From Escherichia coli (GTDB lineage: Bacteria > Pseudomonadota > Gammaproteobacteria > Enterobacterales > Enterobacteriaceae): a stretch of 64,000 bases of DNA. Position 1 is the stretch's first letter; every line of letters starts with the position of its first letter. Positions 33,001-36,000 of this stretch are shown here, in pieces. The DNA lies in NCBI RefSeq assembly GCF_003018115.1, contig NZ_CP027458.1; one strand, written 5' to 3'. Made by a program: the position numbers.

Positions 33001-36000
33001 GGCGGCTGGCGCTTTATGGCATGAACGGTTGTAACCTTATGGTGAAGTCCCTTGCAATTAAATGTGGATAAACAAAATTCCACGTCTGTGAGGCGTGTTT
33101 TGTATCAAAAACAGGGGGAGCGGATGCACCAGAAGCTGGATGATGAGATTGTTTTTTGGGATGTGGTGCTGATTTTTTGTGCGCTGTCGGGCTTCAGACG
33201 TGCGGAAGCCCGACAGCGCGGGCCGGATTATTCAGATGAGGTCAAACTCAGGGGGAGGCTGTGGCCAGCCGTGTGTAGTTGTTGTTCCGCGACATTATCA
33301 TGCGTTCCTTCACGCGACGGTCGATTTCGCGCTTCACCGCCTCCAGGCTTCCTCTGAAGCGCCCTTCCGCGATTTCACGCGTCAGCTGCCGTTTCACCAG
33401 GGTGACGATATCCTGACGTTCCCTGTTCGCATCACGACGCGCACGGGCACGTTTTATTCCCCGGGACTTAAGCTCTGTCTGGTAACTGCGGAAACGCTCA
33501 CGGACAAAACGCCAGGCTTTCGCTATCAGTTCATCCATACCCAGGGTATCCAGCCCCTGCTTTTTGCGCTGTCTGTTTTCCCATTCAACACGACTGCGGC
33601 GCGCAGCCGCCACTGCATCCTCAGACACATCAAGGGCAGCAAACAGAGCCGGTGTGAACGTGATGTCGGTCGGAATGTAGCACCCAATAAGCGGATCATA
33701 TTCCGTCTGGTAGGTAATCAACCCCAGCTCTGACAGGAACGTCAGGGCACGGGTGGCACGGGTGATGGAGAGTTTTCCGGCAGCAGACTCCGTCGCCAGT
33801 CCGCACTCAATGGCCAGTGTGGTGATGGAGCACTGGACGCGGTTGGCCAGCGGGTCATAGTGGAAACACAGCCCCTGCAGGAGCGCATCAATAGCCCGTC
33901 GACGCAGCACCGGTGGCATGCGCCGACGCAGACCACGCGAACGGGCATGCGCCACATGAATAGCGAAATCAAAACGGGAAGTGAAGCCCACCGCCTTTTC
34001 CATCAGTTTTTCGCAGAACTTCAGCGTTCCGGCACCTTTACGGGGTGTAAACACCGGATTCGGGTTCTTTACCTGGCGGTAATACGTTTGTTGAAGATCA
34101 GTCACACCATCCCGCACTTACAATGCGCAGAAGGAGTGAGCACAGAAAGAAGTCTTGAACTTTTCCGGGCATATAACTATACTCCCCGCATAGCTGAATT
34201 GTTGGCTATACGGTTTTTAGATGGCCCCGGTAATCTTCTTAGTCGCCAAACTTGTCGAAGATTATCGGGGTTTTTGCTTTTCTGGCTCCTGTACATCCAC
34301 ATCAGAACCAGTTCCCTGCCACCTTATGGCGTGGCCAGCCACAAAATTCCTTAAAACGATCAGCAATCTAACATCTCATCACTGATACAGCAAGAAACGC
34401 AAATATTCACAAAGATTTTCTGCGCTTAACCTCTGACTCTATCAGCCACTCAAGCATCTGTGCCTGAGTGATCCCGTCTTCATCAGCAAGCTCACTTAAC
34501 TTTTCTTTCAAGCGAAGCTGAATGACGGCATGAAACGCTTTATGAGTGGCACTCCTTCTTGCGAGAGACGCTTTTTGTCGTTCTCTCGCAGGAACAGGAT
34601 TCCCCCTTCTGTAAGGTCGCTTTTTTCCCGATGAGGAAGTCTCTGCATTTACTGTCTGCGACATCTCGCCTCCTCTCTTCTCAGACAGGGATCGTTTCGC
34701 AGAGGATACTACAGTTTTTTGAAATCAGCGACTTGAGAATTGTGACGAAGATCTGTGTTGGCGCACAAATCAACGGGGATTACTGTTGTTTAATGTGATT
34801 TTTGTTGCGAAATGGCTGAAAAACAGGAAATGCCTTAACCTGTGTGCCGGCCCCGGGCGGGACCGGCGGTTTCTGGCATGTCGGGTGTCTGCCCCTGAAA
34901 TACCTCACACTTCCGGAAAGCGGGGACTTCCGTCCCCGCCCGGCAGCTTACTTCCGTGCTTCGTAGGCCAGAGTTACCTGCACCACTGTATTTCCCCTGT
35001 GAATATTCAGCTCACATAACCGTTCCCTGAATATCAGTGAAAAACACAACACCGTGGCGCACACGGCGAGCAACCCAATAAGGGTATATTTCGTCATAAA
35101 CTTTGACCTCTCTGCAAGGAAGAGGCTACAATCAGTAGTGCTACGTACTTCATGCAGGCCTCACGAGTTAATGGATTAACAAGTGGGGTCTTCGCATTTC
35201 TGGTACCTGCGTCTTGCCTGAACCAGAAAGGCTCAGACACCCGCCGCGATAATACCACATTCCCTGTTGCTGACTATTCCCTCCATTTCCCGCTTTTCGC
35301 TACAGAAACGCCGGGGACGGGGAAAACTTGCTTTTTCCCGTCCCCGGGGTTGGACAACTGAGCAACGCGAAGGCGTCAGTGGATTTTTATGATCCTTCCA
35401 AACTCTGCTTCCATTTTTTTCATATCCTGTTCTCTTACTGCGACTATCAGTTGTTTTCCTGATTTTCGTGCCACTCTGGCAAACTGCATGACGGCAGATT
35501 CATTATTCAAATCAGGCCATCCTGTACAATTAAAAATAATAATATGCTCACTGGCGTTCAGTGCATCCCTGATAAAAATAACCGCATAATCATTTAATGT
35601 TCTGTCAGAACAACTGTAAATCTGGCTGAAATCATAATACTTATAATCAGTGATATTCAGTTTATTTAAAAAACCATCAACTTCAGAAGCTGAGTCCCCA
35701 CTATAAGAACATTATGATTAGACGATGTGATTAATTCTGATACTGCCTGATAGTTCATTTGTTCACCTTTCATTAACAGAGAAATAAGTTAATAATGTAA
35801 TATGCTTCATGCTTTTAAATATCGCATTTCAATGAGAACTCAATAGCCACAGAAATATCATTATTTCCGTGAGCGCCATACCCAGGGCGGAACAGGAGCG
35901 CTGTCTGCCCACAGACCACGTTTCTGCTGTCGAGCTTCTCCCTGCAGGACGGGAAGAACAGGATCGGTGTTGTACTGCTCATAAACCCATGCAGCGCCTG

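Follow-up and report, generated by a model that had tools for sequence, protein, structure and literature searches.

A duplicated hairpin-plus-tail module of the F-like plasmid backbone, with pairing preserved on the transferred strand

Which function, if any, keeps a short hairpin-bearing sequence in two places of an Escherichia coli plasmid, each time next to unrelated genes? The question is raised by a 64,000-nt stretch of contig NZ_CP027458.1 (hereinafter the window), which belongs to an IncF (FIA/FIB/FIC-FII) plasmid near-identical to p_STEC1588_2 and contains this sequence near hok/sok (copy A) and in the gap between traT and traD (copy B). The original prediction treated the two sites as a shared terminator or recombination module that could mark the way two cargo genes were delivered into the backbone. 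We find that A and B are paralogues of one 72-75-bp module, with discrete borders, that belongs to the backbone of classical F/R1/R100/pSLT-type plasmids, that the stem of this module is under selection, and that its pairing is kept preferentially on the strand that is transferred in conjugation. The module might function as a single-strand signal, most likely in the incoming DNA, a prediction that we put forward tentatively and that could well prove wrong.

Both copies are on the + strand, as direct repeats 11.5 kb apart, at 35305-35379 (A, from GAAAC to GGCGTCAG) and 46842-46913 (B), bounds that are slightly shifted from those first proposed. They share the blocks AAACGCCGG, then a hairpin, then CCGGGGTTGGACAAC(T)GAGCAA(C/A)GCG(A)AGGCGTCAG. 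When the copies are aligned, the left block reads (G/A)AAACGCCGGGGA and the right block CCGGGGTTGGACAAC(T)GAGCAA(C/A)GCG(A)AGGCGTCAG(T), with three single-base indels between the copies. The inner (upper) hairpins are unrelated sequences, GC-rich in A (GGGGACGGGGAAAA/CTTGC/TTTTTCCCGTCCCC) and AT-rich in B (GGGGAGAAATAAAA/TTTA/TTTTATTTCTTTCC). The alignment thus bears out the earlier description of a single shared module in which conserved flanks enclose differing inner hairpins. The match is far above chance: A scores 30 in its best local alignment to the rest of the window, whereas 100 shuffled queries average 13.0 (sd 1.1) and never exceed 16. A motif search of the rest of the window recovers A and B only: the 15-mer and the 12-mer block have no further exact occurrence in it, and a covariance model of the module built from 24 haplotypes, which matches A with 90.3 bits and B with 94.8 bits, detects no third copy in the 64 kb.

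Folding yields a stable stem-loop at A and at B, as the original prediction anticipated. The stem-loop of A (35307-35351, + strand) consists of AAC-G-CCGGGGACGGGGAAAA, the loop CTTGC and TTTTTCCCGTCCCCGG-G-GTT, with 19 pairs and one G·G position, and is followed by the tail GGACAACTGAGCAACGCGAAGGCGTCAG (35352-35379), which is predicted to be mostly unpaired and is conserved in sequence with B. The stem-loop of B (46844-46887, + strand) consists of AAC-G-CCGGGGAGAAATAAAA, TTTA and TTTTATTTCTTTCCGG-G-GTT, and is followed by the tail GGACAACGAGCAAAGCGAGGCGTCAG (46888-46913). Each copy contains a 16-bp stem that AAC/GTT extends, across the single G·G position, to a 19-20-bp stem, with a tail of 26-28 nt on the 3' side that is largely unpaired in the predicted fold; the fold z-scores on the + strand are -4 to -5.5. 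The stem base (AAC-G-CCGG ... CCGG-G-GTT) and the tail (GGACAAC(T)GAGCAA(C/A)GCG(A)AGGCGTCAG) are kept as sequence, and the upper stem is kept as pairing only.

Among the distinct hairpin haplotypes (11 of A and 13 of B), standard pairs occupy 98.6% (A) and 97.2% (B) of the pair cells on the + strand, a level that falls to 61-72% when the partners are slid by one column. In B, double compensatory changes (AU/UA, UA/CG) are present and none of 500 shuffles reaches the observed covariation score; covariation is weaker in A, where 54 of 500 shuffles reach it. The G·G position is turned into C-G or G-C in four haplotypes. Because these variants repair the hairpin, they support the extended stem and argue against a long-range ACGCC/GGCGT pairing that would close the whole unit, an alternative fold that we reject. 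The stem structure of the module is under selection.

This pairing favors one strand. The + strand folds at -43.5 kcal/mol and the - strand at -37.8 kcal/mol in A with RNA parameters (-26.9 and -21.6 kcal/mol with DNA parameters), and at -32.7 and -21.1 kcal/mol in B (RNA). In all variants the + strand fold is the more stable one, the margin being 6-12 kcal/mol (RNA parameters) or 4.5-6.6 kcal/mol (DNA parameters), and paired cells among the haplotypes drop to 86.1% (A) and 90.3% (B) on the - strand. The variable columns run AT-GT-GC on the + strand, and the identical changes are A·C mismatches on the - strand; G·T cells number 46 on the + strand against 3 on the - strand, and over 140 instances the + strand pairs include 298 G·T against 6 A·C. 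The + strand A·C variants are singletons, one of them in pWR100, a non-conjugative virulence plasmid of Shigella flexneri, where module A (L144, 2499-2575; labels of this type denote individual loci) carries the rare disruption GCGAGG.

An internal control is provided by another hairpin, which follows the traT stop in cargo-free plasmids and is more stable on the - strand in all variants (-19.2 against -15.8, -21.2 against -13.9 and -16.3 against -8.9 kcal/mol for the - and + strands, respectively). Given this bias to the mRNA-sense strand, it is probably a real 3' hairpin of the traT mRNA. In an empty traT-traD gap it reads GGAGGCCGGTCAGACCAGCCTCC (L005, 1464-1490) and is located 8 nt from the module hairpin; the equivalent in the window is replaced at 46920-46936.

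The strand on which the module pairs is antisense (template) to all the neighboring genes, including tra, hok and rep. The oriT inverted repeat of this plasmid, together with nic (GCAAAAACTTGTTTTTGC-GTAGTGTGT|GGTGC), reads on the + strand, and psiB, psiA and the other genes of the leading region lie on the - strand. The strand on which nic reads in this orientation is the nicked one in established F biology. Together, the position of oriT/nic and the orientation of the leading genes identify the + strand as the nicked, transferred strand (T-strand), with which the findings of Couturier (2023) are consistent.

Since pairing is kept on the T-strand, antisense to the genes, we propose that the module is a single-stranded signal on that strand; the strand bias hints at such a signal rather than at an ordinary terminator. 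The T-strand would enter the recipient single-stranded, and the module would fold into a stable hairpin that would exclude single-strand-binding protein (SSB), leaving a landmark beside a short exposed tail. The conserved tail could then be presented to a protein, for example a factor for priming or loading, at one site just upstream of the RepFII replicon (A) and at another just upstream of traD-traI (B). That this single-stranded form is DNA, as opposed to antisense RNA, is our inference, as is the existence of a binding partner. Going further, and here we are more doubtful, the module might represent a new small class of transferred-strand DNA signal outside the leading region that primes or organizes complementary-strand synthesis or loads a plasmid or host protein.

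Several observations weigh against a single-strand signal. Three G·T pairs in one stem are more typical of RNA than of DNA. By our own count, about 10 columns contain G·T and 3 contain A·C, which gives p ~0.05 in a one-sided sign test; the strand-bias statistic is built on related haplotypes and becomes stronger only when abundance is counted. Even on the - strand the hairpin retains a fold of -21 to -38 kcal/mol, and module A is unchanged (the common haplotype) in non-conjugative pO157-type plasmids. A conserved priming signature was not found in the two tails, the CTG of DnaG being present in the A tail and absent from the B tail; the stem is too short for -35/-10 boxes, and no DnaA box was found in the module. 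The position is typical of a terminator, 0-10 nt after - strand stops and 64-168 nt before the next - strand unit, and terminator activities are named in the title of a study of the F traS/traT region (Jalajakumari et al., 1987, J Mol Biol 198:1). Finally, the published single-stranded DNA (ssDNA) promoters and ssi sites (NAR 2025 gkaf1299; Masai and Arai, 1997; Nomura et al., 1991) that F and IncI plasmids carry are hairpins of large size, restricted to the leading region. Because the haplotypes are related, the strand-bias evidence is good but not conclusive.

Whether the module belongs to the backbone or came with cargo is answered by its distribution. Module B is nearly identical in traT-traD gaps that contain no cargo gene, in an F-like (L005) and a pSLT-like (L006) plasmid. 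The homology of the window to cargo-free plasmids stops at ~46923, 10 nt to the right of B, and the traT allele and the sequence that follows it differ as well; in R100-like plasmids, an unrelated gene (245-259 aa) is on the other side of B, joined at the CCGGCTTCGCCGG hairpin ~95 nt away. Matches to module A are found in 4728 plasmid records, and 2543 of the 5426 complete E. coli genomes contain it (47%; 2930 records), in 2962 plasmid places against 18 chromosomal ones. It follows yihA, the TGA stop of which lies inside cTGAcgcc, or a PIN-domain gene region, or the gene that we denote orfX, with hok/sok present or absent on the opposite side. Because B occupies cargo-free gaps and A adjoins many different genes, the module is part of the backbone rather than cargo-borne. 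It is a feature of the classical F/R1/R100/pSLT lineage, and neither copy arrived with cargo genes, so that the proposed role in their delivery has to be abandoned for A as well as for B.

When 100,044 species genomes (a single genome for each species) and metagenomes were scanned for exact patterns, 143 instances were obtained, all of the A or B type in IncF-like DNA, and no contexts beyond these two. Searches with the covariance model did not find the module upstream of traD in IncFIIK plasmids of Klebsiella and produced no credible match in the oriT/leading segment (L141). Contigs labeled as Streptomyces, Lachnospiraceae, Collinsella, Microbacterium and Acinetobacter idrijaensis (L011, L012-L016 and L018) carry IncF backbone identical to that of E. 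coli plasmids and most likely reflect contamination or mis-binning. In a metagenome contig with a B-type site (L085), a natural deletion between two TTATTTC repeats removes the left flank and the hairpin and leaves the tail and the downstream sequence intact.

The main rival explanation, which is possible although we doubt it, holds that the module is a leaky intrinsic terminator, 3'-end hairpin or insulator for - strand genes. It would stop or attenuate transcription leaving traT (B) and yihA/orfX (A), shield the hok, copB-repA and traD units against read-through and stabilize the upstream mRNA, and A and B would be duplicates of one terminator cassette. The placement fits well: a GC-rich stem-loop is located directly downstream of an open reading frame, always immediately after - strand stop codons (0-10 nt from the tail end), the next - strand unit begins 64-168 nt downstream, and CGUUU(U)C comes after the GC-rich CCGG base of the stem when the - strand is read. 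There is also an overlap between the region of B and the classical "terminator after traT". However, the U-tract is only 3-4 long and follows a 2-nt spacer; CGTTTCTG (A) and CGTTTTCG (B) do not provide the five or more T in 8 positions, starting 0-2 nt after the stem, that an intrinsic terminator would have, and a consensus terminator scan calls neither site and reveals no canonical U-tract on either strand at A or B. Pairing including G·U is not kept on the mRNA-sense strand, where the wobble pairs become A·C and only 86-90% of the cells are paired against 97-99% on the other strand, whereas the neighboring post-traT hairpin does show an mRNA-sense bias. A terminator would also leave the 28-nt conserved tail without a role, and tra transcription must read through B for traD and traI to be expressed. 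Thus, the shared module of the original prediction stands, and its assignment as a terminator is doubtful in view of the inadequate U-tract and of wobble pairs on the strand antisense to the genes.

Less probable is an antisense-RNA hairpin on the + strand, which could protect a 3' end, provide a site for RNase III or act as a backstop against read-through that originates at the Sok and CopA promoters in the case of A, and at an unmapped antisense promoter close to the start of traD in the case of B. The + strand wobble bias and the frequent G·U pairs fit RNA, the Sok promoter (35103-35132) fires towards A, the 20-bp stem is long enough for RNase III, and the + strand RNAs AS-traI and AS-pc02 are found in the region. 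However, no U-tract follows the hairpin on the + strand, a promoter-like + strand site was not found upstream of B, and the left flanks of A vary, which implies that there is no conserved promoter. An Rfam 15 scan of 33-49 kb, with E-values up to 1, recovered CopA, sok, AS-traI and AS-pc02 and no family at A or B. The + strand antisense RNAs matched in that scan (AS-pc02 at 36499-36641, AS-traI at 41573-41649 and CopA at 34190-34279) document transcription of this strand elsewhere in the segment.

A recombination or cassette-exchange site is improbable as well, although the edges of the module do coincide with mosaic breakpoints. Such a site could be acted upon by a structure-specific recombinase on the folded strand, or the module could simply offer RecA 75 bp of homology at which to cross over. 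When the 4728 plasmid records matching A (BLAST) are sampled at even spacing, most alignments end at window positions 35379-35381 and about half cover 35305-35379 alone, with breakpoints at 35305 and at 35379-35381. Among the collected loci, at least nine unrelated right flanks and at least four unrelated left flanks of A abut GAAAC... and ...GGCGTCAG at the identical nucleotide; at B the left flank is constant and the right flanks fall into four classes. In Klebsiella pneumoniae pINF299.2 (L007, 1690-2380), we observe an array of yihA, a full module A, an intact 157-aa orfX, a 14-nt tail remnant (GCACGAAGGCGTCA) and hok, with a duplicated 22-nt flank; at another locus (L010, 1690-1720), orfX abuts the hok flank and the module is lost altogether. 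The array, together with a conserved stem base, a variable top and a one-strand reading that recall integron attC sites, would suit recombination. Nevertheless, there is no associated recombinase, the defining features of attC are lacking (R'' does not complement R', a central unpaired bubble is missing and the boundaries fall outside G|TT), and the cargo junctions at B are 10 nt and ~95 nt off the module. Moreover, the nuclease gene and other neighbors are divergent alleles and some junctions are scattered inside yihA, so that the sharp edges may just reflect a conserved island between old lineages, which would look the same; the breakpoints at A do not show that the module causes exchanges. 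The suggestion that the motif bounds variable gene content is nonetheless correct for A: the motif is ubiquitous backbone sequence, as the original prediction allowed as an objection to itself, but at A it is not unrelated to breakpoints.

The weakest alternative, a functionless relic of a mobile-element end (for instance an inverted repeat of the Tn3 family that starts with GGGG) or of a miniature mobile element, draws on the discrete borders of the unit and on a tail beginning GGGGTTGGAC, ~34-38 nt long and loosely like Tn3-family repeats, and is highly improbable given the ~13/36 similarity to the Tn3 repeat by eye, the lack of an inverted partner for the two same-orientation copies, the mere two syntenic contexts in the species genomes and metagenomes scanned, and covariation that shows ongoing selection on the stem.

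In the window, the genes around the two copies are all on the - strand, in the order traG, traS, traT, a gene for a 203-aa lipobox protein, module B, traD, traI, traX, a ygiW-like gene, finO, a thermonuclease gene, the frameshifted orfX, module A, hok/sok, copB and repA. The two neighbors named originally, a frameshifted gene and a lipoprotein gene between traT and traD, were correctly recognized. The first of these, orfX (35389-35774, tblastn frames -2 then -1), is outside the module and is 57% identical to its intact 157-aa homolog in pINF299.2 (tblastn). The second (46978-47589) encodes a putative lipoprotein of 203 aa with the lipobox-like sequence MLSICFLIQGC, is also outside the module, and belongs to a divergent segment that extends from traT to this cargo gene. 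The traT gene of the window (47661-48392) is a divergent allele; in cargo-free plasmids the traT stop is followed by the - strand-biased hairpin and then by module B. The 3' end of the lipoprotein segment contains a small - strand hairpin, GGCCAGCAGGACTGGCC (46920-46936), at the junction of backbone homology (~46923). Module B is located 146 nt upstream of the start codon of traD (44498-46696). On the other side of the region, the thermonuclease gene occupies 35861-36322, and the hok mRNA leader/sok region 35087-35242 (Rfam RF01794), with the hok promoter at ~35249-35276 and module A 64 nt upstream of the hok transcription unit.

A stress-tolerance gene of the NirD/YgiW/YdeI family (38011-38382), between traX and finO, represents another variable insertion in the distal tra region. 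The R100-type genes of 245 and 259 aa between traT and traD are found at L003 (1244-2023) and L004 (1298-2035); the former overlaps the traD start by 4 nt (ATGA), which gives it the look of an integral part of the operon. Neither orfX nor the 203-aa lipobox protein nor the 245/259-aa R100-type gene matches a family in Pfam, NCBIfam or PADLOC.

In E. coli, resistance and virulence genes are carried mainly by F-like plasmids, and the module is present on plasmids in about half of the complete genomes of this species. If the strand bias means what it seems to mean, it would point to an unstudied T-strand signal outside the leading region, with a bearing on the way in which the remainder of a 100-kb plasmid is made double-stranded and expressed in a new host; if such a signal does act in priming or loading, plasmid establishment would depend on more than the leading-region Frpo/ssi hairpins. 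If the module is only a leaky terminator, the finding is a housekeeping one, of use to annotators in showing the repeat to be backbone and the traT-traD and RepFII-adjacent cargo not to have been delivered by it. Module A is, in addition, a precise conserved landmark for mosaic breakpoints beside the IncFII replicon. Full-text searches of the literature, which did not extend to the 1987 traS/traT paper and a 1994 tra review, produced no description of the motif, of the A/B paralogy or of the strand bias.

How does the module compare with known systems? It fails a defining feature of intrinsic terminators, of Frpo/ssi promoters, of attC sites and of Tn3 repeats or miniature mobile elements. With rho-independent terminators it shares a stem-loop directly after stop codons, a GC-rich base and a few U on the mRNA-sense strand, and B lies in the region named in the title of the 1987 report on the terminator downstream of traT of F; it differs in the short and offset U-tract, in pairing on the antisense strand and in the long conserved tail, and the mRNA-sense bias by traT is found in a second hairpin. 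The Frpo/ssi ssDNA promoters are likewise strand-specific hairpins, active only on the single-stranded T-strand, and the module has the same orientation to oriT, its favored strand being the nicked one. However, Frpo/ssi hairpins are large (below -75 kcal/mol per 300 nt), rebuild -35/-10 boxes and map to the leading region (NAR 2025 gkaf1299), whereas the module has a 20-bp stem without promoter boxes, with TAAAAT in the B arm only and no -35 at the right spacing. One copy lies in the traT-traD gap and the other separates the nuclease/yihA region from hok-repA; measured along the T-strand, the distance to the leading region is ~30-45 kb.

The likeness to integron attC sites consists of a conserved stem base with a variable top, a single folded strand, GTTGGAC (GTTRRRY-like) at the 3' base, and a position 3' of swappable genes. 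However, the 5' partner of this R' sequence in the module is (G/A)GAAAC rather than RYYYAAC, so that only the 3 bp AAC/GTT of the R box could pair and the box is not complementary, and the module has no unpaired central spacer or extrahelical-base pattern. Flank junctions and gene boundaries are at the outer ends of the unit, not inside G|TTRRRY, and no integrase is present in the annotated neighborhoods. An inverted repeat of the Tn3 family or a miniature element is rejected on the grounds given above.

Other candidate signatures were considered and set aside. The start of the tail, GGGGT-TGG (GGGGTTGG), resembles the F nic GGGGTGTGG, and the loop region of A, AAAACTTGCTTTTT, resembles the oriT repeat AAAACTTGTTTTT. 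A TraI pseudo-nic site is nevertheless rejected, and the resemblance judged a low-complexity coincidence, because the nic of this plasmid is of the R100 type (GTAGTGTGT|GGTGC), the loop similarity is absent from B and the tail is constant across nic types. The top of the A hairpin (GAAAACTTGCTTTTTC, 35322-35356) likewise resembles the oriT inverted repeat GCAAAAACTTGTTTTTGC (L141, 4276-4310). Compared with consensus sequences, TTGTCCAAC matches a DnaA box at 6/9 positions and only GTTGT matches the Tus/Ter core, neither of which is convincing, and the module contains no convincing IHF motif, CsrA motif or G-quadruplex.

The closest parallels are found among strand-specific initiation sites. 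The ssiA/ssiB sites of RSF1010, which are used by the RepB' primase, and G4-type sites resemble the module in combining a short hairpin with a conserved single-stranded 3' tail on the template strand, in two copies; there is no sequence similarity, and the module copies are direct rather than inverted, 11.5 kb apart. A CTG 3' of the hairpin, as in G4-type DnaG sites, is present in the A tail (CAACTGAG), whereas the B tail contains CAACGAG without CTG. We know of no dedicated primase from IncF plasmids. RS_B/ssoA of Gram-positive rolling-circle plasmids is a strand-specific single-strand-origin hairpin with a conserved base, found at module boundaries of unrelated segments. It differs from the present module in sequence and in its much longer hairpin with a CS-6 loop motif, and the comparison is one of analogy only. 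By analogy, then, the module appears most like a strand-specific initiation or recognition hairpin of the kind represented by RSF1010 ssiA/B and ssoA/RS_B, without being a member of those families.

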